Source: an uncultured Nitrospiraceae bacterium
GTDB lineage: Bacteria; Nitrospirota; Thermodesulfovibrionia; Thermodesulfovibrionales; Dissulfurispiraceae
Assembly: GCA_963705105.1 (NCBI GenBank)
Contig: CAVPIW010000006.1
Coordinates: 544,001-608,000, forward strand
Length of the DNA stretch: 64,000 nucleotides
Direction of reading: 5' to 3'
In this document: positions 23,019-46,858 of the stretch, piece after piece
How positions within the stretch are numbered: the stretch's first letter is position 1
Layout of the letters: each line of letters opens with the position of its first letter
Translations under genes and position numbers: made by a program
The notes under the pieces: generated by a model
The model's input: only the letters and a program-made list of their open reading frames with translations
The model's database searches: none
Told to the model about the DNA's origin: nothing

Positions 23019-23031
23019 CGGAAGGGTTTAC

Positions 23032-24654: not shown

Positions 24655-25350
24655 TTGCAGTTGCATGGATAAAGCGTGGCGAAGCGCCTCAAAGCCTTGC
24701 TGATCGCGACTCTCCTCCGGGAAGGCAAATATGGTTCAAAGCCTTTCCAATGCGATGATGAGGACCATTTCGGCAGGTGCACCGAAAGGCAGGGCAAAGT
24801 GCCTCAAAGCCTCGCTGATTGCGAGCATGATTGGTTATTATCGGTTGTGAAGATTTCATCCTTTGTATTATCAACAGTTGTGCTTCCATGCTCTCAACGG
24901 GACGGCAGCGGTTTCGCAGCACCGATGCTTTTCGGTACTTCACCCCGCCTTTCGGTCCGGCGTATGAGGCAACGTGTCCATCTCAGGGTGTTCAGCCTCT
25001 GATGCCTGACGGGCACTTGGTATAGATCGACACGGCAAAGGGTGGTCTGGGGATCAATAAGGTATCTTAGAGGAAAGGTTTTTCACCACATCAGCCTTCC
25101 CGTCGGTACGATTGTCGTCCGGTTTCCGTCTTTGCATGCTGTCTATTGTCTATGTAGGAGTGGCATAGAAAGGCGGGGCGAAACGCCTCAAAGCCTTGCT
25201 GAAGGCGACGATACTCCTCGTCATCTTCGTGTTTCAGGATTTCACTCTTTGTGTCATCGACCATTAGCATATAGTTCATCTTTCGTTTTGATACAGGTGT
25301 CGCCGCAGCAAGGTTTTCGGCGCATACGCCCCGCCTTTCCATGCAACAGC
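24655..25350 (-). repeat. Composite modular repeat: long nested-hairpin unit (24717-25104) plus short units (copy R4)
   Basis: Reverse complement of 24717-25104 is colinear with 29941-30330 and with 46219-46803. Confidence 0.9.
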
Positions 25351-25359
25351 AGGTTTCAC

Positions 25360-26628
25360 CTATCTCTCGGTATACGATGCGGGAATGGCGCGATTGCCGC
25401 CGGACCTGGCGGTCTTCTGCTGCGGCACCGATGAAAAGTAGCCGTGGATCCCCCTGGCGATGGATTCCGCCAGGGCCTGGCGGTAATGGTCCTTCGACAG
25501 AAGGGTTTCCTCTATGGGATTGCTGATGAACGAGACCTCCACAAGAGCCGAGGGCATTTTCGCACCGACGAGCACATAGAACAGCGCCTGCTTGACGCCG
25601 AGGTCCGTCACGAGGGAATATTCATCCCTCATGTTTGTGACAAGGGTGTTCTGGATGTTGCCTGCCAACTTCACCGATTCGTTTCTCTTCGCCTCCCGTT
25701 CGAGCGAAGCGAGAATGAACCCGAGCTCACTCTGGACCTGCTTCATTTTTTTCAGGGAAATGGCGTTTTCTCTGGCCGCCACCTTCATCGCCTCGATGTC
25801 GTTTGTCCAGTTCAGCAGGTACGTCTCGATGCCCTTGGCATTCCTGTTCGTGCTTGCGTTCGCATGGATTGACACGAAAAGGTCCGCCTTGTTCTTGTTG
25901 GCGATCGACGCCCGCACGTCAAGGGGGAGAAACACATCCTTGTCTCTCGTCAGCATGATCTCGTAGAGGGGATACTCTCTCGCCATGATCTGCCTGACCC
26001 GCAGTGCGACGTCAAGGACGACGTTCTTTTCATAGAGGCCGTTGCGGCCGACGGCGCCGGGGTCATGACCGCCGTGCCCGGCATCGATGACGACCCTCCG
26101 CTTCAGGGACGGGTCGGCCCGGATGACGGGCTGCTTCACATCTTCCTTCTTCTCCTGGATCTTCGGCTCCGGAGCATTCAGCTCCGGCGTCTTCAGCCCC
26201 GGCGTTCTTGAGGAGATATCGATGACAAGCCTCGACGGCTCCCCCTGCCATGAGACACGGTAATCATAGTCCGCCTTCACGATATCGACGACGACGCGGA
26301 CCGTCTCCCTGTCGAACCGGCCGATCCTCACCCCTTTGACAAGGCCGTCGTTCACGGGAAGCGCGGCAGGCACACCGCGGCCGATGACGGCCCCCTTCAG
26401 GTCGATGAAAACCCTCTCGGGGTTGCCGATTCTGCCTTTGGCAAATTCGGCCTGGCCGGAAAGGCCGATGGAAATGCGGGTCTGGTCGGCACCGGAGGCA
26501 TGCCTGAGGCCGTTCACTTCCAAAGCATGCTTGCCCTGCCCGGAGGCGGAACTGACGACGAGTACGACGAACATCAGAGCGGAAAAAAACGCAAAGGCTT
26601 TCGCATGTGTCGCCGCTTTCGTGCTCAT
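25360..26628 (-). CDS. N-acetylmuramoyl-L-alanine amidase with AMIN domain (AmiC-like)
   Basis: VVIDAGHGGHDPGA, EKNVVL, LFVSIHANAS, LVEVSFISN; signal peptide and AMIN-like N-terminus. Confidence 0.95.
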   Translation of the reverse strand: MSTKAATHAKAFAFFSALMFVVLVVSSASGQGKHALEVNGLRHASGADQTRISIGLSGQAEFAKGRIGNPERVFIDLKGAVIGRGVPAALPVNDGLVKGVRIGRFDRETVRVVVDIVKADYDYRVSWQGEPSRLVIDISSRTPGLKTPELNAPEPKIQEKKEDVKQPVIRADPSLKRRVVIDAGHGGHDPGAVGRNGLYEKNVVLDVALRVRQIMAREYPLYEIMLTRDKDVFLPLDVRASIANKNKADLFVSIHANASTNRNAKGIETYLLNWTNDIEAMKVAARENAISLKKMKQVQSELGFILASLEREAKRNESVKLAGNIQNTLVTNMRDEYSLVTDLGVKQALFYVLVGAKMPSALVEVSFISNPIEETLLSKDHYRQALAESIARGIHGYFSSVPQQKTARSGGNRAIPASYTER

Positions 26629-26645
26629 GCCTTCCCCCCGGCTCG

Positions 26646-26873
26646 TTATTGCCGTTCCTTGACGGCACGAATCTCGGGAATCTCTTTCTTGAGAGTCGTC
26701 TCGACCCAGTTTTTCATTGTCAGTGTCGACATGGGACAGGTCTCACAGGCGCCGGTCAGCCTGACATAGACGACATCATTCCTTATCTCGACGAGCTCTA
26801 TATCACCGCCTTCGGACTTCAGCCCGGCCCGTATCTTGCCGAGTACCTCCTCAACCCTTTCCTGCGTAACCAT
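26646..26873 (-). CDS. NifU/Nfu C-terminal domain protein
   Basis: GGDIELV...VRLTGACETCPMSTLTMK. Confidence 0.92.
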   Translation of the reverse strand: MVTQERVEEVLGKIRAGLKSEGGDIELVEIRNDVVYVRLTGACETCPMSTLTMKNWVETTLKKEIPEIRAVKERQ

Positions 26874-27221
26874 TCCAGCCTCCTCTGCACCCTGAAATCC
26901 TTATGGATAGCAGTTTCTATCTTCATCATAGCCGAAGATGCGCAAATTATCAAGATTTATATGCATAAGGAACGGTCGTTCAAAACAGTCTCACGCAAAG
27001 TCGCAAAGAGCGCAAAGAAGGAACGTGTTCGTGCAAGATTATTTTGAACAGCGGTGTTCCTTGGTATAATGATATCCATGGACATCACGCTCACCTATCC
27101 CCATCAATTATTCGAGCGAAATCCCGCTGTGCAGGAGGGACGAAGTGCAGCGCCTGTGCACCGGCCATATCCGGAAGGCTGAGCGGTTTCTCGAAACCCT
27201 TACGTGACAGGAGGACATGTT

Positions 27222-27671
27222 GTGCAGGATGCGGAAAAACTCATCGGGCGTATAAGGAGAATCCTGACATCGCAGCGGCTTGCGGTGCTCTCGACCTATG
27301 GCGGCGATCAACCCTATGCAAGCCTTGTCGCCTTCACTGCAACTGATGACCTGCAACAGATCTTTTTCGCCACCACCCGCTCCACACGCAAGTATGCCAA
27401 CCTGTCGGAGAAAGACAAGGTCGCCCTGCTCATCGACACCCGCAGGAACAGGCCGGCGGACTTCGCGAACGCCGTCGCCGTGACCGCCATCGGACAGGTC
27501 CGCGAGGCGCCGCCGGGAGAGCGGCGACGGCTCATCGCCATACACACGGCGAAGCACCCGGCCCTCACTTCCTTTCTCGCATCGCCGACGTGCGCACTCC
27601 TTGTCATGGACGTCCGGGCATACTACTTCGTCAGCCATTTTCAGGACGTCCGGGAGGTTCATCTCCGATGA
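27222..27671 (+). CDS. Pyridoxamine 5'-phosphate oxidase-like (split barrel) protein
   Basis: LAVLST....PYASLVAF, FATTRSTRKYANL...VALLID; AGGAGG upstream of GTG 27222. Confidence 0.85.
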   Translation: MQDAEKLIGRIRRILTSQRLAVLSTYGGDQPYASLVAFTATDDLQQIFFATTRSTRKYANLSEKDKVALLIDTRRNRPADFANAVAVTAIGQVREAPPGERRRLIAIHTAKHPALTSFLASPTCALLVMDVRAYYFVSHFQDVREVHLR

Positions 27672-29824
27672 GATATTGCATAGCCCTGGATGCCATAGAG
27701 CAGTCCGACCGCGACAACGTGGGGGGCAAGGCCTACGCATTGTCCGGTGTCCTCCGCGAGGGGCTCACCATCCCATCAGGCCTCGCGATCACGGCAGCGG
27801 CGTACGATGATTTCGCCAGGATCACGGGACTGCGGGAGCGTATTATGATCGAGCTGGGCCGCAAAGACTTCCGTGCTATGCGGTGGGAGGAGATATGGGA
27901 CGGGGCGCTCAGAATACGGAATCTCTTCGTGACGACGCCCCTTCCACCCGAGATGAGCGCGGCATTGCACGGGGAGTTTCAACCTTTCGGAGATGGGCGG
28001 CCTGTCGTCATTCGCTCCTCTGCCCCCGGTGAGGACTCGGCGGAGCGGTCTTTTGCCGGTCTGCACGAATCCTATGTGGGCATCGCCGGCATTGCAGCCA
28101 TCATCGACCACGTGAAGCTCGTCTGGGCGTCCCTCTGGTCCGACCGGGCCCTTCTGTACCGTCGGGAACTGGGCCTCGATCCCTTCAGGAGCCGCATGGC
28201 CGTTGTGATCCAGGCGCTTGTCGAGGGGGAGGTGTCGGGCATCGCTTTCGGCAAACATCCTGCGAACCCGTCGCACCGGGTCGTCGAGGCGGTCTCGGGT
28301 CTCAACCAGGCGCTCGTGGACGGCTCCATTACGCCGGACCGCTGGACCGTCGACCGGATGACCAACAGGATCATCGCATACGAGGCAGGCGATCGCGGGC
28401 GCCGCATGATCATGACTGCCGGAGGACCCGTTTTTGAAGAAACCGGTGACAGCCAGGGGATGGCACCCCTGTTGACGGAGGAAGCCGTATCAGCCGTTAC
28501 ATCGGCAAACGCCCGTCTGGAAGAGCTTTTCAAGAGCCCCCAGGACGTGGAATGGACGATGACAGGCACGCGGCTCGTCATACTCCAGTCCCGGCCCATC
28601 ACCACATCCTCCGCCGGCAGTGACGATCAAAGGCCATGGTACCTGAGCCTTACCCGCAGTTTCGGGAATCTCAGGACCCTGCGCCGGAAGATCGAGGACG
28701 ATCTCATTCCCCGGATGATCGCCGAAGCGGACGATATGGCTGCCAGGGATCTCTCCGCCTGTGATGAAAAAGCCCTCGCGGCGGAGGTGCTCCACCGCGC
28801 CCTCCGCTACAGCGCCTGGGTCGATACCTATTGGGCCGATTTCATTCCCTATGCCCACGGCGTCCGCCTTTTCGGGATGATCTACAATGACGCCGTGAGG
28901 CCCGACGATCCCTTCGAGTTTACGGCACTGCTTGCCGAAAACGACCTCGAATCGGTCCGGCGGAATGACCTCATCGAAGACATGGCTGAGATGGTGCGCC
29001 GCGATCCCGTGCTCCGTTCGGCACTGCGCGACGGCGTCTTTGCCGACGAGACGTTCAACGGACTGCTCGAAACGTTCATCGGGGCCTTCGGCGATCTTGC
29101 CTGCGGTGCTGAGGCCTGTGTGAGCGGCAGGCAAGCCGTGGCGGGCATCGTCATCGAGACGGCTGCGAGGCCGCGCGCCGCCCGCGCCGGGTCATCTTAT
29201 CCGATACTACGGGAACGATTCCTCTCACGCTTTGATGCCGGGCGCCGTGACTTCGCCGAGGAAGTGCTTGCGCTGGGCCGGTCGAGCTACAGCCTCAGGG
29301 ATAATGACAACCTCTATCTCGGGAGAATCAAGATGCAGTTCATCAGGGCACTCGAGACCTTTCAGGACCGCTTCGGCTCCATCGACGGCCTGAAAGGGGA
29401 ACACCCTGAAATCGCCCGCGCCGTCGGGATGCTGCCGGACGACCATCCTCTCAGGCCGGCGACAACCGCCGGCGCACTCACGACGGACAAATTTGTCACC
29501 AGGGCGCGCCAGCTCACCGGCCAGCCTGCCGGACCCGGCATCGCCCGCGGAACCGCCCGGGTCATCATCAATCACGGTGATCTTTTCACCTTCAAAGCCG
29601 GGGAGATCCTGGTCTGTGACAGCATCGACCCAACCATGACTTTCGTCATCCCCCTCGCGGCAGCCGTCGTCGAGCGCCGGGGAGGCATGCTCATCCACGG
29701 CGCCATCATCGCCCGCGAGTACGGGCTTCCCTGTGTGACGGGCATCCAGGACGCCACCCTTTTCATAAAAACCGGCGATACCGTGACAGTCGACGGATAC
29801 CTCGGGATCGTCACCATGGACTGA
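27668..29824 (+). CDS. PEP-synthase-like phosphotransferase (ATP-grasp, central domain, C-terminal His swivel domain)
   Basis: VGGKA, IRSSAPGED..SFAG, QDVEW, LQSRPIT, GGMLIHGAIIAREYGLPCV; ATGA overlap with the upstream gene. Confidence 0.88.
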   Translation: MRYCIALDAIEQSDRDNVGGKAYALSGVLREGLTIPSGLAITAAAYDDFARITGLRERIMIELGRKDFRAMRWEEIWDGALRIRNLFVTTPLPPEMSAALHGEFQPFGDGRPVVIRSSAPGEDSAERSFAGLHESYVGIAGIAAIIDHVKLVWASLWSDRALLYRRELGLDPFRSRMAVVIQALVEGEVSGIAFGKHPANPSHRVVEAVSGLNQALVDGSITPDRWTVDRMTNRIIAYEAGDRGRRMIMTAGGPVFEETGDSQGMAPLLTEEAVSAVTSANARLEELFKSPQDVEWTMTGTRLVILQSRPITTSSAGSDDQRPWYLSLTRSFGNLRTLRRKIEDDLIPRMIAEADDMAARDLSACDEKALAAEVLHRALRYSAWVDTYWADFIPYAHGVRLFGMIYNDAVRPDDPFEFTALLAENDLESVRRNDLIEDMAEMVRRDPVLRSALRDGVFADETFNGLLETFIGAFGDLACGAEACVSGRQAVAGIVIETAARPRAARAGSSYPILRERFLSRFDAGRRDFAEEVLALGRSSYSLRDNDNLYLGRIKMQFIRALETFQDRFGSIDGLKGEHPEIARAVGMLPDDHPLRPATTAGALTTDKFVTRARQLTGQPAGPGIARGTARVIINHGDLFTFKAGEILVCDSIDPTMTFVIPLAAAVVERRGGMLIHGAIIAREYGLPCVTGIQDATLFIKTGDTVTVDGYLGIVTMD

Positions 29825-29844
29825 CCGGGACCTTCTTTACCTTA

Positions 29845-30422
29845 TCGTTGCAATACACTCCCGGGAAAGGCGGGGTGTATGAGCCGAAACAGCAGACAAG
29901 AAACAGTAGTCAGTCGTCGGAACAGGGCTGCGAACAGCCGGACGGGAAGGCTGATGTGGTGAAAAGCCTTTCCTCTAAGCTACCTTGTGTATCCCCAGAC
30001 CACGCTTTGCCGTGTCTATTGATACCCTAAGCCCGTCAGGCAGCAGGCGCTGAACAACCTGAGATGACATATTCTTCATATTCCCGACCGGAAAGGCGGG
30101 GTGAATGCGCCGAAAAGCATCGGTGCTGCGAAACCGCTGCCGTCCCGTGAAGAGCATGAAAGCACAACTGTCGACGATACAAAGGATGAAAATGTTTAAA
30201 ATCCAATAATAAATAATCATGCTCGCTATCAGCGAGGCTTTGAGGCGCTTCGCCCCGCCTTTCGGTGCATCTGCCAAAATGGTCCTCATCATGGCATTGG
30301 AAAGGCTTTGACCCCTATCAGCCTTCCCGGAGACAGCGGTCGTGACACCGACACTGACACTGACACTCACACTGTCACTGTTTTTCAGAGCGCTTCGCAC
30401 CGCCTTTTCACGCAACTGCAAG
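29845..30422 (+). repeat. Composite modular repeat: long nested-hairpin unit (29941-30330) inside short-unit termini (copy R5)
   Basis: Begins TCGTTGCAATAC, ends with a GACACT/CACACT tract and CCGCCTTTTCACGCAACTGCAAG; encloses the long unit. Confidence 0.9.
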
Positions 30423-30465
30423 ACCCCGTTCACAAAAATTTCCAGCCTCGTGTATACTATGAGCC

Positions 30466-31383
30466 ATGAAAAAAGTCGGCTTCCTCTACGATGACATATT
30501 TCTGAAGCACGAGACCCCCATGGGTCACCCGGAGAACAAGGAGCGTCTCGTCCATATCCTTCATGTCCTCAGGGAATCGGGCCTATGGGATAAGCTTGTC
30601 CATATCAAACCCCGCAAGGCGTCCTTCGACGACATCGCCCTCGTTCACGAGTCGCGGTACATCGAGCGGGTGCAAAAATTCGGCACGGGATATCTCGACC
30701 CCGACACCTACGTTTCGAAAGACAGTGTCGAGGCGGCGCTCTATGCTGCAGGAGCCGTCATGGAGGCGATCGAGAAATGCAAGTCCGGTGAGATCGACCG
30801 GGCCTTCTGCGCCGTGAGACCGCCGGGTCACCACGCCGAATCCCACCGGGGCATGGGGTTCTGCATCTTCAATAATGTCGCTGTCGGCGCCCGGCATGCC
30901 CAGAAGATCGGATACGAGAAGATCTTCGTCATCGACTTCGACGTCCACCACGGCAACGGGACCCAGCACCTCTTCGAGGAGGACGACAGCGTGTTCTATT
31001 TCAGCTCCCACCAGTATCCCCACTATCCCGGAACGGGCTCCGCATCGGAGACGGGACGGGGCAAGGGAAAGGGAAACACGTACAATGTTCCCCTCCACTG
31101 GGGAGCCGACGATGACGATTTCATCAAGATTTACGGGACTATCGTGCCTGAGCTGGTCGACTCGTTCAAGCCCGATCTGCTCCTCGTCTCATCGGGTTAT
31201 GACATCAGGAAGGAAGACCCCCTTGCGGGAATCCGCGTCACCGGTGAAGGCATAAAGGGCATCGTCTCGGGCATCCTCTCGGCCACATCGAAGCCCGTCA
31301 TCTTCAGCCTCGAAGGCGGATACAATCTGAACGCCCTGGCCGATTCCGTCCGTATCACCCTCCTGGAAATGCTCAGCCACTGA
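30466..31383 (+). CDS. Histone deacetylase family (Zn-dependent) deacetylase
   Basis: [33 protein letters not shown]. Confidence 0.95.
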
Positions 31384-32599
31384 GCGCCTCAAGAGCGGCC
31401 CGCACCCTCCTCCCGTACTCATCCCTGCAGGTCTGCTCGATCGCGCAGAGTCGTTCGAAGGGCTCCCGGAAGTCCTGCGCCCCCGCCGTAAAAACACCAT
31501 GGCCGTAAACGATGGCGCCCCTGCCCTCCCGCATGGCCGCAGGCACGGTGTGCATGAGACCTGACGGACCGGTCCCGATGTCCCCCGACACGACAGGAAT
31601 GCCGGCGATGCGGTCCCTCATCATGGCCCCGGGAGCTATTGTGCAGACGTCTGGGGAAGAAACCATCGACATGATGACTGCGAACTTCGGATGGCCGTGG
31701 AGTATGGCCCTGCATTGCGTTTCGGCATAGATGTTCCGGTGGGCCGACAGCTCCGACGACGCGGTGATGCCGACCGATGACGACCCGTCGAGCGGCACGG
31801 CGTCGATGCACCCCCCCAGCTCGTCCATGGAGCTCCCGGTCTGGCTGATGAAGATGCTGCCGTCATAGAGATATGAGATGTTGCCGAAGTAGGAATCGAC
31901 AAGGCGGCGGTCCACAACGGCCCTGCCCGCCTCGCAGATCATCGAGATGACGTGGTCCTCGTCAACTGGAGGACCCGGCAGGAGGGATGCCGTCTCCCCG
32001 GCGGAACGGCTCACCTGCATCACCTCCCACACGCGGCTGAACTGACGAATAAAAGATTTGTCCGGCCGCGCCCCGCCGGCCACGGCCGATTCAAGATGGC
32101 TCAGACCCTTCGCGAAATAACAGACGAAAGTGGAAAAGCAGGCCGAGCTGAATGAAACGAAGGCCTGCTCCGGCGTCACCCTCCCGTGGGAAACGATGCC
32201 GCGGTCCCTGATGATCACCGACTTCCTCTGCGAGAGCGCCGACGAGATATCTTCAGCGGTGAAGGCATGGATGACGGGGATGTCGTGGAAAAACGTCCTC
32301 GTCTCGCAGTCTTCCGGGACGATCCGCTCAAGGCCGCCACAGGTGGTCCTCCGCGAGAGGAGATGGCCGCTGTCGCCGCAGAGCTCTGCGATGATCGTCC
32401 GGTAGGGCTCCGCGGGTTCGGCAAAGAGAAGGGCATTGATGCTCATTTGGTCGAAGAGTCGGCGAAGTTCCTCCGCTTCGGCAGGCGGCGCCCCCGCCGA
32501 GCAGATGTCGGCGTCGAGGGCCATGAGAAAGGCCCCGTCAGTGCGGGCCAGGCCCTGCGCCTCGAGCTTATGCTGATACTTCCTGAGCTGCCCCTGCAT
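31373..32599 (-). CDS. Class II aldolase/adducin-family protein, two-domain
   Basis: [35 protein letters not shown]-terminal part with [12 protein letters not shown]. Confidence 0.8.
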
Positions 32600-35257: not shown

Positions 35258-35275
35258 AAAGGAGGCGGTCTCTGT

Positions 35276-35953: not shown

Positions 35954-35954
35954 A

Positions 35955-36626: not shown

Positions 36627-36703
36627 AATCTCCTCCGTGGTCTGTTGGTGATTACAGGTCTGCCTTTCAGTTGCATGGAGAGGGTGTAGTGCAACGATGA
36701 GGT

Positions 36704-37678
36704 CTATACGCCGAGAAGGATCGCCACATGGTTCCTGATGAGTTCCGGCAGACGCTCAAGGCAGTAGCCGCCCTCCAGCACCGACACGAGCCGTCCTCCC
36801 GCATACCTCTCGGCCATCCCGACGATCCTTGTCATGATCCAGGAAAAGCACTCCGGCGAGAGGCGGATGCTTGACATATCATCTTCCGCAATAGCGTCGA
36901 AGCCGGCAGACACGAGCATGACCTGGGGCTTGAAATCGGCGAAGGCGGGAAAGAGATCGCGCTCCAGGAGCGTCCTGTATTCGTCATCCCCCTTGCAGGG
37001 GAGCACCGGCGTATTAAGGGTATAGCCGAGACCGGCGCCGGCGCCCTTCTCATGTTCCCGGCCCGTGCCGGGATAGGCGAAGGTGGGGTGCTCGTGTATG
37101 GAATAGAAGAACACCCCCGGGTCTTCCTCGAAGATGTGCTGCGTTCCGTTGCCGTGGTGGACATCGAAATCGATGATGCCGATCCTCTCTATGCCCCAGG
37201 TGCTCTGGATATATCGCGCCGCAATGGCTACGTTGTTGAAGTAACAGAATCCGAGGGCCTTCATCACCTCGGCGTGATGGCCCGGCGGTCGCACGGCGCA
37301 AAAAGCGTTGTCAAGTTCGCCTTCCATCACCAGCGTCACGGTGTTGACAATGCCGCCCACGGCGAGAAGCGCCGCCTCGAAGGTGTCGTAGCAGATCTGG
37401 TTGTCGGGGTGATCGAAATATTCCTTTTCCGAGAGGCAGGCCTCCTCAAAGCGATCGATATAATGGGGCGGGTGAACGGCCTCGATCCACGCGCGCTTCG
37501 CCCGTTTCGCTTTTATCACGCGGAGGTGGGGAAGGAGACCGCCCTCCTCGATGCCGCGGTATGCGGCGAGCAGGCGATCGGGAAGTTCCGGGTGATCGCG
37601 ATCGACGCGGTGCAGGAGAAACCGTTCGTCATAAAGCAGGCCTGTTCTTCTCAAATTCCGTGACCTCAGAAAACGCAT
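36704..37678 (-). CDS. Histone deacetylase family deacetylase (second paralogue)
   Basis: [33 protein letters not shown]; exact start uncertain. Confidence 0.93.
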   Translation of the reverse strand: MRFLRSRNLRRTGLLYDERFLLHRVDRDHPELPDRLLAAYRGIEEGGLLPHLRVIKAKRAKRAWIEAVHPPHYIDRFEEACLSEKEYFDHPDNQICYDTFEAALLAVGGIVNTVTLVMEGELDNAFCAVRPPGHHAEVMKALGFCYFNNVAIAARYIQSTWGIERIGIIDFDVHHGNGTQHIFEEDPGVFFYSIHEHPTFAYPGTGREHEKGAGAGLGYTLNTPVLPCKGDDEYRTLLERDLFPAFADFKPQVMLVSAGFDAIAEDDMSSIRLSPECFSWIMTRIVGMAERYAGGRLVSVLEGGYCLERLPELIRNHVAILLGV

Positions 37679-37784
37679 GTGAGTTAGTGTCAGATGAATA
37701 ATACATCTTCTCAACGGACAATTTCAAAAAGGACAAATAGGGCGTGCATAAGGGCTCCGGTGTCTGGTACGATAAAAACGTGGC

Positions 37785-39167
37785 ATGAGCAATATCATGA
37801 TGAATAGGCGTCTCAGGATCTTCTTCTCCGGCATCGGCGGCAGCGGCATGTCCGCCCTTGCGACGTTCATGTCCGGCAGGGGCAGCGAGATCGTCGGCTC
37901 CGACAGGGCCTTTGACAGGAACCCCCGTCATCCCGTTCACCAGGTCCTCCTGTCACGGGGCATAAAAATCGTGCCGCAGGACGGCAGGGGGCTCGACGGG
38001 TCCTTCGACATCGCAGTCTTCAGCACCGCCGTGGAAGGTGATCAGCCCGAGGCGGTCAGGGCGCGGTCACTGGGCCTGACCGTCATGACGAGACCGCAAT
38101 TCCTCGCCGGGATCGTCTCATCCCTCAGCACCATCGCCGTGGCAGGCACGAGCGGCAAGTCGACCACATCGGGCATGCTCGCCTTTCTCATGAGAGAGCT
38201 CTGCCTCGACCCGAGCTTCATAGGCGGCGGACGGGTCAAAGACTTCAGAACCGAACACAACCCGGGCAACGCCATCACCGGCACGTCGGACCATCTCGTC
38301 ATCGAGGCCTGCGAGTCCGACGGTACCATCGTCGACTATCACCCCGTCCGGACCATCATCCTCAACCTCGATCTCGACCACCACAGCATCGGGGACACAT
38401 CGGGGATGTTCAGGATGCTCATGGACAACACGAAGGGATTGATCATCGCGAATGGCGATGACAGAAATCTCAGGGAGATCGTTCCGGGAAATGCAGTAAC
38501 TTTTTCTCTTGACGCGCCGTCGGATTACAGGGTGGACAATATCCATCTGCTTCCACTCGGGAGCGCATTTTCCGCCAGAGGGGTGCCGTTGCGGCTCAAT
38601 CTCCCCGGCCGCTACAATATTTCAAATGCTGCCGCATGCATCGCCCTGCTGTCCGAGTTGGGAATACCGGTTCGGGACATAGCCCCTGCCCTTGAAAGAT
38701 TCCAGGGCATCGAGAGGCGCTTCGACATCCACCGCGACGACGCAGAGGGTCTCGTCATCGACGATTACGCTCACAATCCCCACAAGATCGCGGCCCTCAT
38801 GGAGGCCGTCAAGCCGCTCAGGGAGAGGATCTGCTACATCTTTCAGCCCCACGGGTTCGGCCCGACGCGCATGATGAAAAACGAATACATCGCGGCATTC
38901 GCCGATAACCTGCGTGACGGTGACCACCTCGTCGTCCTGCCGATTTTTTATGAGGGAGGGACAGTTGTGAGGGACATCTCCGGCAGGGACATCAGCGATG
39001 GGGTAGCTGCCCGGGGAAAGTCAGCCGAGGCAGTCACAGGGAGAGAGGAGATGCTCGGCAAAGTCAGCGGCTGGGACGGCTATGTCGTGCTCGGCGCCCG
39101 GGACGAGACGCTCTCCGATTTCGCCCGTCAGATCGCCCAAAGAGTCACGCCGCTTCGGAGGGGATGA
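37785..39167 (+). CDS. MurC/Mpl-like Mur ligase
   Basis: GIGGSGMSALA, AVAGTSGKSTT, IEACESD, DDYAHNP, FQPHG. Confidence 0.88.
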   Translation: MSNIMMNRRLRIFFSGIGGSGMSALATFMSGRGSEIVGSDRAFDRNPRHPVHQVLLSRGIKIVPQDGRGLDGSFDIAVFSTAVEGDQPEAVRARSLGLTVMTRPQFLAGIVSSLSTIAVAGTSGKSTTSGMLAFLMRELCLDPSFIGGGRVKDFRTEHNPGNAITGTSDHLVIEACESDGTIVDYHPVRTIILNLDLDHHSIGDTSGMFRMLMDNTKGLIIANGDDRNLREIVPGNAVTFSLDAPSDYRVDNIHLLPLGSAFSARGVPLRLNLPGRYNISNAAACIALLSELGIPVRDIAPALERFQGIERRFDIHRDDAEGLVIDDYAHNPHKIAALMEAVKPLRERICYIFQPHGFGPTRMMKNEYIAAFADNLRDGDHLVVLPIFYEGGTVVRDISGRDISDGVAARGKSAEAVTGREEMLGKVSGWDGYVVLGARDETLSDFARQIAQRVTPLRRG

Positions 39168-40410
39168 CCTTCAGTCCCCCCAGCATGGAGATGAATTCCC
39201 GGAGGAGATGCCGGTCGTATTCTCCGTTCTCCTGGAGTATCCTGGCCAGGGCATAGAAGGGTTTCATCGCCTTCCGGTAAGGACGATTGGTGGTGAGGGC
39301 ATCATAGCAGTCGACGATGCCCGTAATCCTCCCGAACAGGGACACGTCCCTACCTGAAAGACCCGCAGGATACCCTTTCCCGCTCAACTTCTCATGGTGC
39401 TCGACGACGGCGGAAACCGCCTCTCTCGGAATCCCTGGCTGGGACCGGACGATCTTTTCTCCCTCCGGCACGTGCTGTTGCATGACCTGGTACTCCCGGT
39501 TAGTGAGCCTGCCCATCTTGTTGAGAATCTCGTGGGGTATCGTCTTCTTGCCCACATCATGAAGAAGCGCGCCGATACCGAGCCGCTCGACATCATCCCT
39601 CGGCAGGCTGACGGCGACGCCGAGGCCGATGGCAAGGACTGCAACGTTGACCGAGTGGGCGTACGTGTATGAGTCGAAACTGTTGAGCGACAGGAGATCA
39701 TACATGACGTTCCTGTTGTCGAGAATGCCGTCGATCATCACGTTCACGGCGTCAACGGAAGTGCGCACCTTTTCATCGGTGATTGCGTTGTCGAGGAGAT
39801 CTTTCACAAGGATTTTCGAGTTCTCCTTCAGCGCGATGACCTGTGTCCGTTTCCTGTTCCTTCCGTCGGCGCCGGCCTGCATGAGGCCGCTGAGAAAATC
39901 CCTGTAGAGATCCACGTCGGTCTTATTTATGCAGAAGTCTCCCTCGACGGAAAGCACCGCATCCTCGACGGTTACCGGATGATGCTCAGTCGCCGTGAGC
40001 AGAGTTTCGCAGGAGTAGTCCTTCAGGACGTGAATGCTGAAGGGAACGGACAGCCCGGGCCTGAGAATTGACCGCTCTATCTGGAAGTACTGCTCTTTCT
40101 GATCGGTATAGCGGCTGAACGATTCCTGGGCCTCGACTGCCGGGGACTTGCGGACCCGGGGGGCGGAGGGAGGAGTTTCCAGGGAATGAGCGTCGCTCTT
40201 CCTGAGGAAGACTTCGGTGATCTTCCGTTCTCTCAGGACATCCCTCTCGTTTTCCGTCAGCCTGCCGCCGGCCTCCAAAAAACAGACAAAGGCAAGCCCG
40301 TCTTTTACATAAACCGGACAGGAAAGGGTCGAATCTTTGGGTACCTTGTCGACGTCGACGGGAACAAGCGGCTCCGCCGTCTCGATCTGCCGCCGTATGA
40401 TCATACTCAT
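39145..40410 (-). CDS. HD-GYP domain cyclic dinucleotide phosphodiesterase
   Basis: YTYAHSVNV, LLHDVGK, HHEKLSGKGYP, DCYDALTTNRPY. Confidence 0.92.
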   Translation of the reverse strand: MSMIIRRQIETAEPLVPVDVDKVPKDSTLSCPVYVKDGLAFVCFLEAGGRLTENERDVLRERKITEVFLRKSDAHSLETPPSAPRVRKSPAVEAQESFSRYTDQKEQYFQIERSILRPGLSVPFSIHVLKDYSCETLLTATEHHPVTVEDAVLSVEGDFCINKTDVDLYRDFLSGLMQAGADGRNRKRTQVIALKENSKILVKDLLDNAITDEKVRTSVDAVNVMIDGILDNRNVMYDLLSLNSFDSYTYAHSVNVAVLAIGLGVAVSLPRDDVERLGIGALLHDVGKKTIPHEILNKMGRLTNREYQVMQQHVPEGEKIVRSQPGIPREAVSAVVEHHEKLSGKGYPAGLSGRDVSLFGRITGIVDCYDALTTNRPYRKAMKPFYALARILQENGEYDRHLLREFISMLGGLKVIPSEAA

Positions 40411-40621
40411 CTTATCGGCGAAACCCGATGATGTCTCACCGGACGGCCGGAGATATCCCGGTGCTGCGGCTACACACCTGACCTTGCAGTTGCGGGGCGA
40501 AGCGCCTCAAAGCCTTGCTGAAGGCGGCAATAAGGTTGATGCAACTATTTCCATATCAACCAAAAAGATTCGATCCGTGAATTGTGTCGGACCCCGGCAA
40601 TGACTGGATGATCGAGGAATT

Positions 40622-41035
40622 CTACAGGATTTCCAGGGCTGAGAAGAAGTACGGTATCTCAAAAGCTGCGGACTCGGGCGAGTCGGAGCCGTGGACGACG
40701 TTCCGCTCCACATTCTCGGCGAAGTCCTTCCTGATCGTGCCCGGCGCAGCATTGGCGGGGTTCGTCGCGCCCATGATGTCGCGCACCTTTGAAATGGCCT
40801 GATCCCCCTCGATGACCATGACGACGATGGGTCCCTCGGACATGAAATCAGTCAGGCTGTCATAGAAAGGCCTCTCCTTATGGACGATGTAGAATCCCTG
40901 CGCCTCTTCCTTCGAAAGGGCTATCTTCCTGAGAGCCGCTATGCGCAGCCCCTGTTTCTCAAAGCGGCTGATGACCTCGCCGATGACATTCTTCTTGACG
41001 CCGTCGGGCTTGATGATCGAAAGCGTTCTCTCCAT
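40622..41035 (-). CDS. ndk: Nucleoside diphosphate kinase
   Basis: [18 protein letters not shown]. Confidence 0.98.
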
Positions 41036-41072
41036 TCCGTTCTCCTTGTATAACAGATATTTTTAGACTATT

Positions 41073-41204
41073 GTTGCAGACGCCCCCCCGGAAAGGCGGG
41101 GCTGGGGTGAATGCGCCGCAAACCTTGATGCGGCGACACCATAACAGTCACAAAAGACAACATTATTAGTCAACAGCTGACACTCACACTCTCACTCACA
41201 CTGA
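41073..41204 (+). repeat. Intergenic modular repeat, truncated short unit (copy R8)
   Basis: GTTGCAGACGCC..GGAAAGGCGGGGCTGGGGTGAATGCGCCG...CTGACACTCACACTCTCACTCACACTG. Confidence 0.85.
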
Positions 41205-42131
41205 TTATATATTGATGATGCCGCAGAGCTCCCTGACCGCCGCAACAGACTTCGCAAAATCCTGCCGCTCCTGCTCGTTCAGGTTCAGCTCGACGATCCT
41301 CTGCAGGCCGCCCTCGCCGAGGATCACGGGTACGCCTGTGTACACGTCCTTTACCCCGTACTCGCCGTCCAGGTAGGCTGAGCAGGGCAGCATCCGCCGC
41401 TCGTCCAGGAGAATGGCCTTAACCATCTGGAACGTCGAGGCTGCCGGCGCATAGTAGGCGCTGCCCGTCTTCAGCAGGGCGACGATCTCTGCGCCGCCGC
41501 TTTTCGTCCTTGTGACAAGCGCATCGATCCGGTCCTTGCTCAGCAGTTCCGTGATGGGGACTCCTTTGACGGTCGTGAACCGGGGCAGCGGGGTCATGAG
41601 ATCACCGTGCCCCCCGAGAACGAGGGCCTCCACGTCCTCGGGCGAAACTCCGCATTCCCATGCTACGAAAGTCCTGAATCGCGCCGAGTCGAGGACTCCG
41701 CCCATCCCGAGCACCCGTTTCGAATCGAAGCCGGAAACCTTGAAAGTCAACTGGGCCATGACATCCATGGGGTTCGTGACGGCAATGTAGACCGCCTGAG
41801 GCGAGAGCTTCATCGTGTTCTCGACGACACCCGACACGACTTTGGCGTTCGCCATGAGCAGGTCGTCCCTGCTCATGCCGGGCTTCCTGGCCAGACCGGC
41901 GGTGACAACGACGACCGAGGAGCCTGCTGTGGGGCCGTACTCGTTCGTCCCGACGACGGATGAGGCCGACGCCCAGAGGGGACAGGCCTCGGACAGGTCG
42001 AGGGCCTTGCCCTGGGGCATGCCCTCCGCGATATCGTAGAGCACCACATCGGCGATGCCGGACTGTGCGATCATATGGGCGAGGGAAGCACCCACGTTCC
42101 CAGCGCCGACAACGGTAACCTTGTTTTTCAT
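41205..42131 (-). CDS. mdh: Malate dehydrogenase (LDH-like)
   Basis: VGAGNVG, ARKPGMSRDDL, VLGGHGD, GSAYYAP. Confidence 0.96.
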   Translation of the reverse strand: MKNKVTVVGAGNVGASLAHMIAQSGIADVVLYDIAEGMPQGKALDLSEACPLWASASSVVGTNEYGPTAGSSVVVVTAGLARKPGMSRDDLLMANAKVVSGVVENTMKLSPQAVYIAVTNPMDVMAQLTFKVSGFDSKRVLGMGGVLDSARFRTFVAWECGVSPEDVEALVLGGHGDLMTPLPRFTTVKGVPITELLSKDRIDALVTRTKSGGAEIVALLKTGSAYYAPAASTFQMVKAILLDERRMLPCSAYLDGEYGVKDVYTGVPVILGEGGLQRIVELNLNEQERQDFAKSVAAVRELCGIINI

Positions 42132-42242
42132 TGTGTTGTCTCCTTATTATTCACTCTTTGCTTTAGATAATACTGCATAAGACACACGACGATCAAGCAG
42201 TTCGGGGAACGGCCTCAACATGTCATTCGCACGACCAACTTT

Positions 42243-42479
42243 CTATCCGCACATGCTGAAAGGGCCCTTGATCTTCACCCGGAGGTGGCCGTCGTCCTCT
42301 TTTTCGACGGTGTAATCGGCCCTGCAGGCCCTGATGTAGATCTCGAACTTCCTGAGGTCTTCCTTGTCGTCATCGATCAGCACGTCGACATCGACAAAGA
42401 CGCTGCAGAGTCCTTCAAGATGGCGCTTGAACTCCCTGATGTGCTCCGGGTTCTTCAGTCCCCGCGCGTCGATGAGCAT
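42243..42479 (-). CDS. Small TusA/SirA-like fold protein lacking the CPxP cysteine
   Basis: LIDARGLKNPEH versus the TusA consensus DxRGLxCPxP; VLIDD motif; matching length. Confidence 0.55.
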   Translation of the reverse strand: MLIDARGLKNPEHIREFKRHLEGLCSVFVDVDVLIDDDKEDLRKFEIYIRACRADYTVEKEDDGHLRVKIKGPFSMCG

Positions 42480-42572
42480 GACGACCCCCCTTTCAGCAGA
42501 CGGATTGATCGATTGATCTCAGGCAGCGATACTCAGCCGGCAGTCGGAAAGATAAAACATACGGTCAACGCA

Positions 42573-42745
42573 GACGGGGAGGCCGATGTGGTGAAAAGCC
42601 TTTCCGCTAAGATACCTTGTTTATCTCCAGACCACCCTTTGCCGTGTCTATTGATACCGGAAGCCAATCAGGCAACAGGCACCGGACACCTTGAAATGTC
42701 TCACCATCGCATTGGAAAGACTTTGAACCATATCTGCCTTCCCGG
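42573..42745 (+). repeat. Long-unit outer shell without the inner module (copy R9)
   Basis: GACGGGGAGGCCGATGTGGTGAAAAGCCTTTCC...GGAAAGACTTTGAACCATATCTGCCTTCCCGG, lacking the inner hairpin present in R4, R5 and R10. Confidence 0.88.
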
Positions 42746-42798
42746 AAAAACACCGTGTACAACGAAATCGAGCCGAATAGACTCCGGGCAACGTCTTT

Positions 42799-43737
42799 CT
42801 ACAATGCCGACAGGGTTTTGTTCAGCGTCTCTACATTCTCGACGTTGAAGATGCGCACCGAGGGCTCTATTCTTTTGATCAGTCCCGAGAGCACTTTGCC
42901 CGGCCCGACTTCGATGAAAGTGCCGGCATCGGTCGCCGCAATGGCCTTCACACAATCCTCCCACAGGACGGGATGACTGAGTTGTTTCACGAGGGCCTGC
43001 CGGATGACAGCGCTTTCCGTCGTGATGCGTGCGTCGGCATTGCAGACGATGGGGATTTTCGCATCCCTCAGGGCGATCGCCGCGAGGGCGCTTTCGAACA
43101 GCTTGGCCGCCTCCTCCATGAGCCTGCAGTGAGAAGGGATGCTGACATTCAGCTTCACTGCCCGTTTCGCCCCGCTGTCGAGGGCTTTCTTCATGGCCTC
43201 CTCGACGGCTTCTTTCTCGCCCGATATGACTATCTGGCCGGGGCAGTTGTAGTTCGCCGCCCCGACATAGCCCGTCGTAATGCCCGCGCAGACATCATCG
43301 AGGTCCTTTCTTTCCATGCCGAGGATGGCCGCCATGAGCCCCGTGCCTTCCGGTACCGCCTCCTGCATGATACGGCCACGCACCTCCGTTATCCTGACGG
43401 CGTCGGCAAAGGACAAGGCGCCGGCGGCGACGAGGGCTGAGTACTCACCGAGGCTGTGCCCCGCAACGACCGAGGGGACGACACCTTTCAACGTAAGGGC
43501 CCGGTACGCTGCGACGCTTGCGACGAGGAGGCTGGGCTGCGTCCTGACGGTCCTGTTCAGCTCCGACGCCGGTCCCTCGAAGCTCAGCTGTCCGAGATCA
43601 TATCCGAGAAGGCCCGAGGCCTCCTCATAATAGCCCTTTACCTCACCGACCCGTTCAAAGAGGTCTTTGCCCATGCCGACGGACTGGGACCCCTGCCCGG
43701 GAAAGACGACGGCGATCTTACTCTTGTCCTTTAGCAT
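42799..43737 (-). CDS. fabD: Malonyl CoA-ACP transacylase
   Basis: FPGQGSQ, GHSLGEY, ANYNCPGQ, EVGPGKVL. Confidence 0.97.
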   Translation of the reverse strand: MLKDKSKIAVVFPGQGSQSVGMGKDLFERVGEVKGYYEEASGLLGYDLGQLSFEGPASELNRTVRTQPSLLVASVAAYRALTLKGVVPSVVAGHSLGEYSALVAAGALSFADAVRITEVRGRIMQEAVPEGTGLMAAILGMERKDLDDVCAGITTGYVGAANYNCPGQIVISGEKEAVEEAMKKALDSGAKRAVKLNVSIPSHCRLMEEAAKLFESALAAIALRDAKIPIVCNADARITTESAVIRQALVKQLSHPVLWEDCVKAIAATDAGTFIEVGPGKVLSGLIKRIEPSVRIFNVENVETLNKTLSAL

Positions 43738-44917
43738 CTTTCAGTTTCCTTATCAGGACCGGCACCACCTCGTTGACATCGCCGACGATGCCGTAAGTCG
43801 CCACGGAGAAGATGGGCGCGTCCGGGTTCTTGTTGATAGCGATGATCATGTCTGACGACTGCATCCCCACAAGGTGCTGCACCGCGCCGGAGATGCCGCA
43901 GGCGATGTATATCTTCGGGCAGACCGTCTTGCCCGTCTGGCCGACCTGGTGACTGTAAGAGACCCATCCCTCGTCCACGGCGGCCCTCGATGCGGCAAGG
44001 GCGCCTCCCAGCAGATTAGCCAGCTCGGAGAGCATCTCGAACCCCTTGGGGCCGCCCACTCCCCTGCCGCCGGCGACGATGAACTCGGCCTCCTGGAGGT
44101 TGACGGAGCACTCCGATTCCTCTTTCACCGACTCCAGGACCTTCGTTCTGCAACGGACGTTCTCCGGTTTTATCTCTATGATCTCTCCCGTTCTTGCCGG
44201 GTCGTACTCGTTCCTCTTCATGACCCTCGGCCTCACCGTCGCCATCTGGGGCCGGTGGCGGGGGCACAGGATGGTGGCCATGATGTTGCCGCCGAAGGCG
44301 GGCCGCACCTGGAGGAGGTGACCCGATTCCTCGTCGATTGAAAGGGAAGTGCAGTCCGCTGTCAGGCCCGTACGGAGGCGGGCGGCGACGCGGGGGAAGA
44401 AAGACCTGCCGATGGGTGTTGCCCCGGCAAGGACGATTTCCGGTTTATGGGACCCGATGAGCTCCATGAACATCTGCGCATAGGGCTCGTCGTTGAACTG
44501 GTCGAAAAGGGGGTCGCTGACGTGATAGACCCTGTCGGCGCCCCAGGCGATGAGCTCCCGTGCCTCCTCCGGGGAGGCGCCGAAAAGCACCGCAGAAAGG
44601 CTTGTCTTCCGCACGTCGGCGAGGGCCCTGCCGGCGCCGAGAAGCTCGTACGCCACGGAGGCGACCAGGCCTTCTCTCTGCTCTGCGAAGACCCAGACAC
44701 CACTGTATCCGGACAGGTCGACAGCCGTCCTCTCGTCACCCGCCTCGGCCACCTCGACGATGGCCCCTTCGGGGCAGAGGCTCATGCAGATCTTGCAGAA
44801 ATCGCAGTAATCGGTGATCAGGGCCTTTTCGCCCTGCATTTCGATGGCTGAATGGGGGCATGAATCGACGCACTGTCCGCAGCCCGTGCAGAGTTCCTCC
44901 CTGATGACTATACGCAT
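43718..44917 (-). CDS. etfA: Electron transfer flavoprotein alpha subunit with N-terminal 2x[4Fe-4S] ferredoxin
   Basis: CTGCGQCVDSCP and CDFCKICMSLCP; GLTADCT, RPAFGGN, QVGQTGK, GISGAVQH. Confidence 0.95.
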   Translation of the reverse strand: MRIVIREELCTGCGQCVDSCPHSAIEMQGEKALITDYCDFCKICMSLCPEGAIVEVAEAGDERTAVDLSGYSGVWVFAEQREGLVASVAYELLGAGRALADVRKTSLSAVLFGASPEEARELIAWGADRVYHVSDPLFDQFNDEPYAQMFMELIGSHKPEIVLAGATPIGRSFFPRVAARLRTGLTADCTSLSIDEESGHLLQVRPAFGGNIMATILCPRHRPQMATVRPRVMKRNEYDPARTGEIIEIKPENVRCRTKVLESVKEESECSVNLQEAEFIVAGGRGVGGPKGFEMLSELANLLGGALAASRAAVDEGWVSYSHQVGQTGKTVCPKIYIACGISGAVQHLVGMQSSDMIIAINKNPDAPIFSVATYGIVGDVNEVVPVLIRKLKDAKGQE

Positions 44918-45690
44918 TGCAGCCTCTTCAGCTCCCGGACCAGTTCCTCGACCTGCTCCTCCATCGACCCTTCGAGCTTCCGCCGGTCCGACTTCGCCGG
45001 CGGCGGAAAGATGTTCTTCACCTGAGTCGGCGATCCTTTCAACCCGACGTCATCGCCTGCAGCGCCGATGGAGGCCATATCCATACGCTGAATGACAGCC
45101 TTCTTCGCGGCCATCTTCCCCTTCAGCGAAGGCAGGCGGGGCGTGTTTATCTCCCTGACGACGGTCAGCAAGACCGGCAGCGACGATTCAACCCGGTCGA
45201 ACCCGTCATCCATGAGCCTCTGGACCACGATTGTTTGTGCCGTTACCTCATCGATTTTCCTGACATAGGCGATGTGGGGAATATCGAGGAACTCCGCCAT
45301 TTCCGGTCCGACCTGGGCGGTGTCGCCGTCGATCGCCTGTTTGCCACAAAGAATGAGATCGAAACCGGCCGCTTCCGACGCCTTTGCCAGCGTGTAGGCT
45401 GTCGCCCACGTGTCCGCCCCTGCAAAGGCCCTGTCGGTGATGAGTCTCGCCTCGTCGACGCCCATGGCGATCGTCTCCCTGAGGGCATCCTCCGCCTGGG
45501 GCGGGCCCATCGTCATGACGGTCACCTTCCCCCCTACCTTTTCGCGGACCTGGAGCGCCGCCTCGACGGCGTGGAGGTCATAGGGATTGATGATGCTCGG
45601 CACTCCCTCCCGGATGAGCGTGTGCGTCTCAGGGTGGATCCTGACATCGGCTGTATCGGGTACCTGCTTAATGCAGACGATGATGTTCAC
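44908..45690 (-). CDS. etfB: Electron transfer flavoprotein beta subunit
   Basis: CIKQVPDT, DRAFAGADTWAT, GKQAIDGDTAQVG. Confidence 0.96.
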   Translation of the reverse strand: MNIIVCIKQVPDTADVRIHPETHTLIREGVPSIINPYDLHAVEAALQVREKVGGKVTVMTMGPPQAEDALRETIAMGVDEARLITDRAFAGADTWATAYTLAKASEAAGFDLILCGKQAIDGDTAQVGPEMAEFLDIPHIAYVRKIDEVTAQTIVVQRLMDDGFDRVESSLPVLLTVVREINTPRLPSLKGKMAAKKAVIQRMDMASIGAAGDDVGLKGSPTQVKNIFPPPAKSDRRKLEGSMEEQVEELVRELKRLQCV

Positions 45691-45731
45691 GTCCGTCCTC
45701 CCGCAAAAATTTAGAACCGATAGTTTACCGT

Positions 45732-46121
45732 TTATTCTTCTTTCTTTTCAAGTACTACAGTGGCGACTGCATAGGTCGTTTCGTGTGCCAGTGTCAGGTG
45801 GATGACCGTACCCGCGCAGACGGCGGAGAGCCTCCCGTGAACGATGAGAGACGGCTTGCCGGATGGGGCATTGACGACCTCGATATCCCTCAGGACCGAC
45901 ACCGGCAACACCCTGCGTCCGACCTCCGTGCTGAAGGCCTTGATGAAGGCCTCCTTTGCGGCGAAGCGGACCGCCAGGGATGGAAAGGGGTCCTTTCTCG
46001 TCATGCAATGCGCGATCTCGCCGTCGGTGAAGACCTTCTTCAGGAAGCGGTCTCCCCACCGCCCGACGGCCCGGCGCATCCTTGACACGTCAACGATGTC
46101 AGTACCGATGCCTCGTATCAT
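45732..46121 (-). CDS. acpS: Holo-ACP synthase
   Basis: GIGTDIV, RFAAKEAFIKA, SGKP. Confidence 0.95.
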   Translation of the reverse strand: MIRGIGTDIVDVSRMRRAVGRWGDRFLKKVFTDGEIAHCMTRKDPFPSLAVRFAAKEAFIKAFSTEVGRRVLPVSVLRDIEVVNAPSGKPSLIVHGRLSAVCAGTVIHLTLAHETTYAVATVVLEKKEE

Positions 46122-46131
46122 CCACACCCCG

Positions 46132-46174
46132 GTCATTAAGTCATTGAGTTATTAAGTCACTGAGTCATTGAGTC
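46132..46174. repeat. 8-bp tandem repeat (GTCATTGA-like, five units)
   Basis: GTCATTAA GTCATTGA GTTATTAA GTCACTGA GTCATTGA GTC. Confidence 0.8.
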
Positions 46175-46218
46175 TTTCGTCAGCAGTCGAAAGTCGAAAC
46201 CACGCTGTGATGGCCCGA

Positions 46219-46858
46219 ACGGGAAAGCTGATGTGGTGAAAATCCTTTCCGCTAAGATACCTTATTCATCCCCGGACCACCCTTTGCCGTGTCTACTTAT
46301 CGGAGCATACGCCATCCGGAAAGGCCGGGTGTATGCGCCGAAAACCTTAATGCGGCAACACCGTAACCGTCACAAAAGAAAATGATTCAGGCCGCTGTCA
46401 GAAAAGAGCGAGCCTTTTTTCTGACACTCACACTGACACGTACACTGTCTTTCAGAGCGCTTCGTCCCGCCTTTCTATGCAACTGCAAGGTCTACTGCTG
46501 CCACAAACCCGTCAGGCAAAAGGCGATGAACACCTCGAGATGTGCACATTGCTTCATAGGCCCGACCGAAAGGCGAGGCAAAGCGCCGAAAAGCATCGGT
46601 GCTGCGAAACCGCTGCCGTCCCATAGAGAGCATGGAAGCACAACTGTTGATGATACAAAGGGTGAAATCTTCACAACCAATAATAAACAATCATGCTCGC
46701 TATCAGCGAGGCTTTGAGGCGTTTTGCCCCGCCTTTCGGTGCATCTGCCAATATGGTGCTCATCATCGCATTGGAAAGGCTTTGAACCATATCTGACTTC
46801 CCGATAAACGCACAGCTATCCGCACGTCTTTAACACACTGTGTCCCGCCTTTTCATGC
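46219..46858 (+). repeat. Composite modular repeat: long unit (46219-46803) with a short unit inserted at 46298-46496 (copy R10)
   Basis: Long unit colinear with R5; the insert is flanked by GTCTACT at 46291-46297 and 46490-46496. Confidence 0.9.

Follow-up and report, generated by a model that had tools for sequence, protein, structure and literature searches.

Nested gene-less repeats with IS1380-type ends and a conserved inner hairpin in an uncultured Nitrospiraceae bacterium

Layers of the repeat in the window

We analyzed a stretch of 64,000 nucleotides (the window) from the genome of an uncultured Nitrospiraceae bacterium (family Dissulfurispiraceae by the GTDB taxonomy; assembly GCA_963705105.1, contig CAVPIW010000006.1, positions 544,001 to 608,000). 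The initial annotation had described here a nested-hairpin repeat of about 390 nt, with three full copies and one empty shell, that would be either a large structured noncoding RNA (ncRNA) or a non-autonomous mobile element. The three colinear long copies are indeed present, at 24717..25104 on the reverse strand (copy A) and at 29941..30330 (copy B) and 46218..46804 (copy C) on the forward strand, to which all features below belong unless stated otherwise. They share 87.6 to 88.9% identity over 386 to 388 aligned bases, and the motifs quoted for them were all found where they had been placed. [quoted passage not shown] The inserts lie at 24763..24978 (reverse strand) in copy A, where the MITE ends have decayed and the inner hairpin is intact, at 30067..30284 in copy B, and at 46543..46758 in copy C.

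Further layers surround or interrupt these copies, and the MITE ends around A and B had been left out of the initial annotation. Copy A is enclosed in a composite (24653..25353, reverse strand), with an amidase gene on one side and an amidohydrolase gene on the other, in which, by sequence and arm map, outermost MITE ends of the IS1380 type surround an I unit, a linker, O filled with I', and a right I arm. The I unit, upstream of copy A (25161..25353, reverse strand), has an O linker in place of its right terminus, and the 4-bp flanks of the whole composite do not match. Copy B sits within a similar stack (29840..30423), made up of an I-type left end preceded by TTTA, a linker, the filled shell, hexamer repeats, and a decayed I-type right end. 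Copy C, located between pdxJ and acpS, is longer because of a third element, a younger I-family MITE (46296..46490) in the left half of its shell with a TCTA duplication at the flanks. The shell-only copy (copy D, 42573..42745) is 173 nt long and 86.7 to 88.4% identical to A and B; the surrounding MITE ends are gone, and both its junctions were also found in runs X4 and X6. What had been recorded as a lone left arm near 61797-61835 is a truncated and degenerate O left arm (61793-61834, 70% identity over 40 bases) with a typical O-type linker before it, the two together spanning 61750..61834. Free I-family MITEs were mapped by their arms at 1592..1796, 17043..17248 (reverse strand), 22810..23031, 53272..53485, 56382..56573, and 59652..59885. 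Outside the 390-nt form, the inner stem recurs by itself some 10 further times in the window and by the hundreds over the whole genome.

In agreement with the absence of a common open reading frame (ORF) noted before, no reading frame is kept across the 14 filled copies of the genome. The folding energy of copy B is −152.5 kcal/mol (z, −7.1) on one strand and −159.2 kcal/mol (z, −7.2) on the other, far beyond chance; such folding of both strands is what long inverted repeats give. An Rfam scan of the window at gathering scores gave nothing over the copies, and copy B at an E value of ≤10 had only two irrelevant eukaryotic matches (E about 5).

The census was done over the whole assembly (4.23 Mb in 19 contigs, 99% complete; here G000). 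It contains 111 pairs of outer arms, 87 of them 169 to 178 bases long (69 of exactly 173), 14 of 373 to 610, one of 82, and 9 spurious long ones. The empty shell, presented at first as an exception, is therefore the majority form, with 87 empty against 14 filled copies. For the individual arms we counted 617 left and 624 right for I and 128 left and 161 right for O. They form 690 clusters, 15 of them in the window, that occupy ca. 3.5% of the genome; 320 are a plain I pair, 38 have O between a left and a right I arm, and 18 are O alone. Interiors of the I' type number 60, and 43 of these are not directly inside an O shell.

Mobility of family I and the search for its mobilizer

Family I is about 215 bp long (the I' inserts measure 201 to 219 bases as cut) and has ends of the form CCTT…AAGG. 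Both 13-base ends are kept, with at most 2 mismatches, in 230 of the 465 I arm pairs, and 130 of these 230 are flanked by an exact 4-bp duplication of the TNNA kind, mostly T(A/T)(A/T)A, compared to a mean of 13.8 and a maximum of 24 after shuffling. An attC-like reading of the ends was discarded, since the outer TAAC/GTTA letters are a variable target duplication and not a fixed box. Empty sites were found in paralogues and in a related strain. At C14:248012, an I copy is inserted within an I' and has duplicated TAAA, and the shell of copy C offers the equivalent case in the window, with an I insert of 195 bases and TCTA duplicated. The strain-level one comes from a contig of run X4 (2142 bases, ca. 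95% identical) that joins 23654-24612 to 25369-26507 via 43 other letters, which indicates a related strain without the whole copy-A cluster. Joints with short sides at repeats were counted as paralogue artifacts, and among the matches listed for runs X2, X3, X8, X6, and X11 there was no contig bridging copy B or C. Also in favor of mobility, 30 of 402 I copies have a neighbor of ≥99% identity, although the median is 92%. Family I and the composites with an I shell have the features by which MITEs can be recognized: they are short and noncoding, with terminal inverted repeats (TIRs) like those of an insertion sequence (IS), target-site duplications (TSDs), and both empty and filled sites. Of the two original proposals, that of a non-autonomous mobile element has fared well, and a probable class of mobilizer can now be named.

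This class is IS1380. Among the IS1380 loci of the bacterial family (L035 to L084), examined as sources of the ends, most had other ends and only L042, from a related genome, fitted (NF033539, 227 bits, cutoff of 180). Together with L085 to L094 it makes up an unnamed subclade, present in 7 of 401 genomes of the phylum, G000 not among them. Its IS are ca. 1520 bp long and end in CCTTGTAGTTGCA / CCTTAACGTTGCA, with the same 13-base pattern as the MITE ends; of the 6 complete elements, four of which come from one genome, 4 have matching 4-bp flanks. From the agreement of ends and duplications, family I was likely spread in trans by a transposase of the IS1380 type, for which G000 itself has no gene.

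Other candidates were rejected. The element is not itself an autonomous IS1380, having no ORF. None of the multicopy IS of G000, which presumably belong to IS256, IS3, IS1634, IS4, and ISL3, has family I ends, and neither do the 9 loci representing 15 DDE_Tnp_1 matches or the IS1182 gene. Nine candidate long arm pairs were considered as possible borders of a transposase gene; among those listed, host genes are enclosed. Scans of viral contigs gave 0 matches, plus 3 one-armed chance matches. With a probability of roughly 0.75, we favor a reading in which related, gene-less MITEs of the IS1380 type are stacked in the 390-nt repeat like Russian dolls; their outermost ends and 4-bp TSDs match the IS1380 subclade, and they probably moved in trans.

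Taken alone, neither the O shell nor the 390-nt form has IS-type ends and a TSD of its own. No signal of target duplication was detected at the edges of 87 O copies, whose flanks are conserved linkers. Instead, O is without ends and found mostly within those of I: among 101 copies, an I-type end lies nearby on the left in 39, on the right in 38, and on both sides in 25, and of the latter, 10 have a TSD (shuffled, 2.5; maximum, 8). In G004, from the same family, a homologue of O lies directly within IS1380-type ends and has no insert; thus, O looks like an older sister MITE with decayed ends, and the empty form is probably the ancestral one. As to the insert, its constant junctions, MITE length, and decayed versions of the ends (read by eye) have as their simplest explanation one old insertion. 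An I-type MITE would once have entered one O site, and the later decay of its ends would have produced the 390-nt form. Once their own ends had decayed, the inner layers were likely carried along by the outer ones.

The copies also seem to have exchanged parts. On the shell tree, which is poorly resolved (18 of 98 branches well supported) and does not separate gain from loss, filled shells lie scattered among empty ones, with 13 changes in all (13.4 when shuffled), no fewer than 3 of them forced. Linkage within O is very low and declines with distance (r2 from 0.036 to 0.016; permutation P = 0.001), the linker types upstream of O are nearly independent of those downstream (P = 0.07), and for coinheritance of shell and insert the Mantel comparison points neither way (rho = 0.18; P = 0.23; n = 12). 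Gene conversion among copies, shuffling shells, inserts, and linkers, would account for the interleaving, the decay of linkage, and the free combination of linkers, although the insert may instead have been lost precisely and repeatedly. Some elements, at 62737-62924 in the window and in several clusters of the genome, are hybrids whose ends are both of the left type or both of the right type, as expected from recombination between oppositely oriented copies. The linkers flanking O are variable and contain short tandem repeats of 6, 7, and 8 bases in variable number (CTGACA/CTCACA, AGACAGT/AGACAAT, and GTCATTAA/GTCATTGA), with examples in the window at 46136-46217, 30346-30385, and 61750-61795. 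Autonomous IS are also found within these linkers (C10:155746-157143, C6:933816, C10:240917, and C6:831343); linker sequence flanks one copy of an element present five times, and three O copies are followed by ends of the IS1634 and IS3 types.

The shared hairpin and the strand on which it folds

O, I, and I' are diverged members of one hairpin superfamily. They have a common layout, found also in relatives, of a variable stem, a GA/GA mismatch, AAA/TTT, a second stem, a 2-base bulge, GCGAY/RTCGC, and ACC. With a covariance model built from 12 copies, matches were obtained in 38 of the order's 151 genomes, which represent 26 of 80 genera, frequently with many matches in one genome. In a phylum-wide scan it matched 8 of 151 genomes, and the sole match outside the order was weak (L249, G194:C18:65058-65250; E = 4e-5). 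A pattern scan of species genomes gave at least 120 loci, of which 80 were listed and 30 passed a strict two-arm filter; nearly all of the latter are titled Nitrospirota, titles that may be wrong for metagenome-assembled genomes. Recognizable IS-type ends accompany the copies of relatives on the left in 29 and on the right in 21 of 64 cases, some loci being reached twice, against 8 of 245 in the control. In other genera (L099, L102, L105, L188, and L200), the hairpin is bounded by a different terminal repeat (CC-ATAATCCGTAA), perhaps that of another IS1380 subclade, so that it is carried by ends of two types.

The hairpin is highly conserved as a structure. Over 30 rows, 90.5% of the cells pair, compared to 76.3% when shuffled and 38 to 47% when slid, and 25 of the 30 pairs change on both sides, a value reached in 0 of 500 shuffles; the structure tested was named from the same 30 sequences, which favors it. 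The GA/GA mismatch is kept in 25 rows, while 3 lineages have turned it into a perfect GA/TC pair, and all 30 agree at the A-T pair of the inner motif and at the CC that comes after it. On the GA strand, G-T exceeds A-C by 67 to 16, with wobbles of the G-U type in 25 of the 30 rows. The same excess is weak within O alone (40 to 24; P = 0.06) and, in I (285 to 75), is driven by few subfamily positions (13 for, 6 against, and 1 tied). In G000, the stems of O vary at 2.8% of positions versus 10.9% inside, and GA is retained in 86 and 85 of 87 arms. From the strength of the covariation, the hairpin most probably has a structural function.

One possible function is at the RNA level: the hairpin could be a discrete ncRNA, or it could protect or process mRNAs, and be kept by selection on the host. 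The covariation, the wobbles confined to one strand, and the quiet stems of O would all suit it, and there are precedents: the passages on these repeats in PMC3184786 and PMC10969869 describe bcr1 as transcribed, with compensatory changes, and Correia elements as cut by RNase III. In RNA run X20, from a more distant organism, low-depth contigs touch the repeats and one extends >300 bases past O, such contigs carrying neither strand nor ends. However, in gaps between codirectional genes (by rough calls, 3418 genes and 77% coding) the folding strand is not preferentially sense (130 sense and 143 antisense for I, 25 and 46 for O). The bias that does exist follows replication. With replichores assigned by third-position GC skew, the folding strand is on the C-rich (lagging-sequence) strand in 49 versus 17 O copies and in 155 versus 95 free I copies, whichever of the three gene contexts is considered. 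An orientation that tracks replication and not transcription favors a role at the DNA level over an ncRNA. The positions are, besides, polymorphic between strains, there is no conserved gene context, and Rfam offers no match. Of the proposed large structured RNA, therefore, the covariation stands, a discrete gene is not supported, and we regard a role as RNA as very unlikely. Replication-linked orientation has been documented for several IS families, and argued to be mechanistic, in the portion of PMC3971601 devoted to it, where no figure is given for IS1380. Here, the bias may derive from a preference of the transposase or from the loss of copies with the folding strand exposed on the lagging-strand template.

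A hairpin without any function should also be considered. Copying from arm to arm, together with gene conversion among hundreds of copies, could by themselves preserve the complementarity of the arms and make them less variable than the ends. The recombination signal in O fits this idea, as does the low conservation of the I ends, which adjoin unique DNA and vary more than any other part of the family, and the three lineages with a perfect GA/TC are what arm copying would produce. But the same process should erase the mismatch, the bulge, and the wobbles, while the GA bases persist in nearly all O arms and in most of the lineages; nor would it explain why G-T exceeds A-C on one strand or why the inner motif is invariant. 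We consider this explanation unlikely.

Still less probable, in our view, is that the hairpin core itself moves, as a single-stranded DNA (ssDNA) substrate of the REPIN or attC kind for some enzyme yet to be found, with the IS1380 ends as one acquired vehicle. The core does outlive its ends, in O (including the 18 clusters of O alone) and in I', as well as in the many relatives' copies that lack recognizable ones, and it is carried by two kinds of end. A fixed mismatch and bulge and a one-strand bias resemble the substrates of HUH enzymes or integrases, and the replication-strand bias points the same way. Against this, the four stand-alone Y1 (PF01797) genes of G000 (L001 to L004; C5:264358-265311, C7:292476-293141, C5:339353-340237, and C6:957389-958360) all have short inverted ends of their own, are not flanked by arms of the repeat, and have no hairpin next to them, which eliminated a RAYT/Y1 mobilizer. 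The gene in C6 adjoins an attC-like site (identified by eye) and the 5' part of a group II intron. The neighbors of 28 loci in relatives had no gene in common, except for one pair, and among the 80 listed of the at least 120 loci of the pattern scan there was none with a left arm followed by a long ORF. In addition, the conserved linkers of O resemble the remains of MITE flanks. A tag of the REP/REPIN type at the foot of the hairpin was discarded too: O begins with a GACG-like motif (87/68/87/100%) that relatives do not share, and GTAG/CGTC is not found across genera.

Returning to the stack of IS1380-type MITEs, several observations weigh against it. Only the 230 I copies mentioned above retain both ends, 15 of the 25 I-shelled composites have no TSD (A and B of the window included), and among relatives only 3 of 14 copies with both ends have one. 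The empty site of X4 has 43 letters where simple removal predicts ca. 51. PF13701 was not found in G000, where tblastn gave no remnant of the subclade transposase (best E, 0.06), and is also absent from the high-copy relatives G019, G051, G053, and G062. The matching IS does not contain the hairpin and so does not account for its origin. The GC skew is weak over 19 contigs; 35 of the 101 O copies and 143 of the 393 I copies lay where it was flat and were left out. Finally, strong covariation and a G-T bias would suit an RNA equally well. With these reservations, the MITE stack could be completed by one last step, the least certain of all: the hairpin with its GA/GA mismatch and 2-base bulge would be under selection as a folded single strand of DNA, most likely at replication, and not as an RNA gene. 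One could go further and tentatively see in it an ancient, order-wide ssDNA signal, for the IS1380 transposase or for another enzyme still to be found, that parasitizes MITE shells, is kept after their ends are lost, and spreads from shell to shell by recombination. This we think unlikely; if true, it would represent an unrecognized layer of non-autonomous mobility or, alternatively, the first hint that single-stranded folds at replication forks are used in IS1380/piggyBac-like transposition.

Other mobile DNA in the window and comparison with known systems

Apart from the repeats, the window has fragments of group II intron domains (RF01998 and RF02001) at 11400-11481, 11664-11768, and 14536-14713 (reverse strand), which surround a transposase frame of the IS256/Mutator type (11851-12723, reverse strand) and a gene with a TIR_2 domain (13360-14274). 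Together, these may represent a small island of fragmented mobile elements plus a defense gene. There is also a TPP (thiamine pyrophosphate) riboswitch at 4816-4923 on the reverse strand (RF00059, 66 bits).

Our search of the published literature, which did not extend to ISfinder, turned up no description of this repeat family. What we add to the initial annotation is the recognition of O as a layer of its own, in the majority and with passenger status; a probable account of how the 390-nt form came to be nested; the grouping of O, I, and I' in one superfamily; the empty site in a related strain; and the orientation bias along the replication strands. Among MITEs the family is of an ordinary kind, but dense and active enough to differ between strains. 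The part of interest is the inner hairpin: it surpasses the transposon ends in conservation, covaries over ca. 26 genera, has one folding strand, and follows replication in its orientation. Its natural variants (empty or filled shells, GA/GA or GA/TC) provide an easy handle on the effect of the hairpin in IS1380-type transposition or in the retention of copies. It is also a warning: in a multicopy repeat, strong covariation is not enough to establish an ncRNA gene.

The closest parallels are the bacterial MITEs, such as Correia/NEMIS, RUP, ERIC, Nezha, and Chunjie, which, in the accounts of them contained in PMC3184786, PMC10969869, and PMC3733652, are likewise noncoding elements of 70 to 300 bp with IS-like TIRs and TSDs, present as hundreds of intergenic copies with stable folds and at both empty and filled sites. 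Unlike them, the family described here is nested in itself over several layers with decayed inner ends, its shells and cargo recombine freely, and its inner hairpin is conserved above the transposon ends and covaries over ca. 26 genera. With the IS1380 family (NF033539, PF13701) it shares CC…GG ends, the 13-base pattern, and AT-rich 4-bp duplications; it differs in having no transposase, either in the element or in G000, and a hairpin interior that does not derive from the subclade IS. REP, REPIN, and BIME sequences, associated with RAYT, are also abundant intergenic palindromes in mosaic clusters, with G-T pairs and fixed mismatches in the stem. Where PMC3733652 treats them, REPs are 20 to 40 bp long, mostly with stems of 6 to 9 bp, and carry a GTAG/CGTC tag, whereas the stems here are of ca. 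30 bp, with arms 75 to 110 bases apart and 4-bp TSDs, and no flanked Y1 gene was found; the repeat does not belong to the REP/REPIN class. As for the RNA alternative, its model is the cutting of Correia hairpins by RNase III, as covered in part of PMC10969869. The nearest described oddity is bcr1 of the Bacillus cereus group, which, as reviewed in the section of PMC3184786 that concerns it, is a mobile repeat of ca. 155 bp with direct repeats, compensatory changes that keep its structure, and an unclear mobilizer. It is transcribed, with 5-bp direct repeats and a cruciform fold, while the repeat of the present genome, known from its sequence, has a 4-bp duplication and folds as a rod with the GA/GA mismatch and the bulge.

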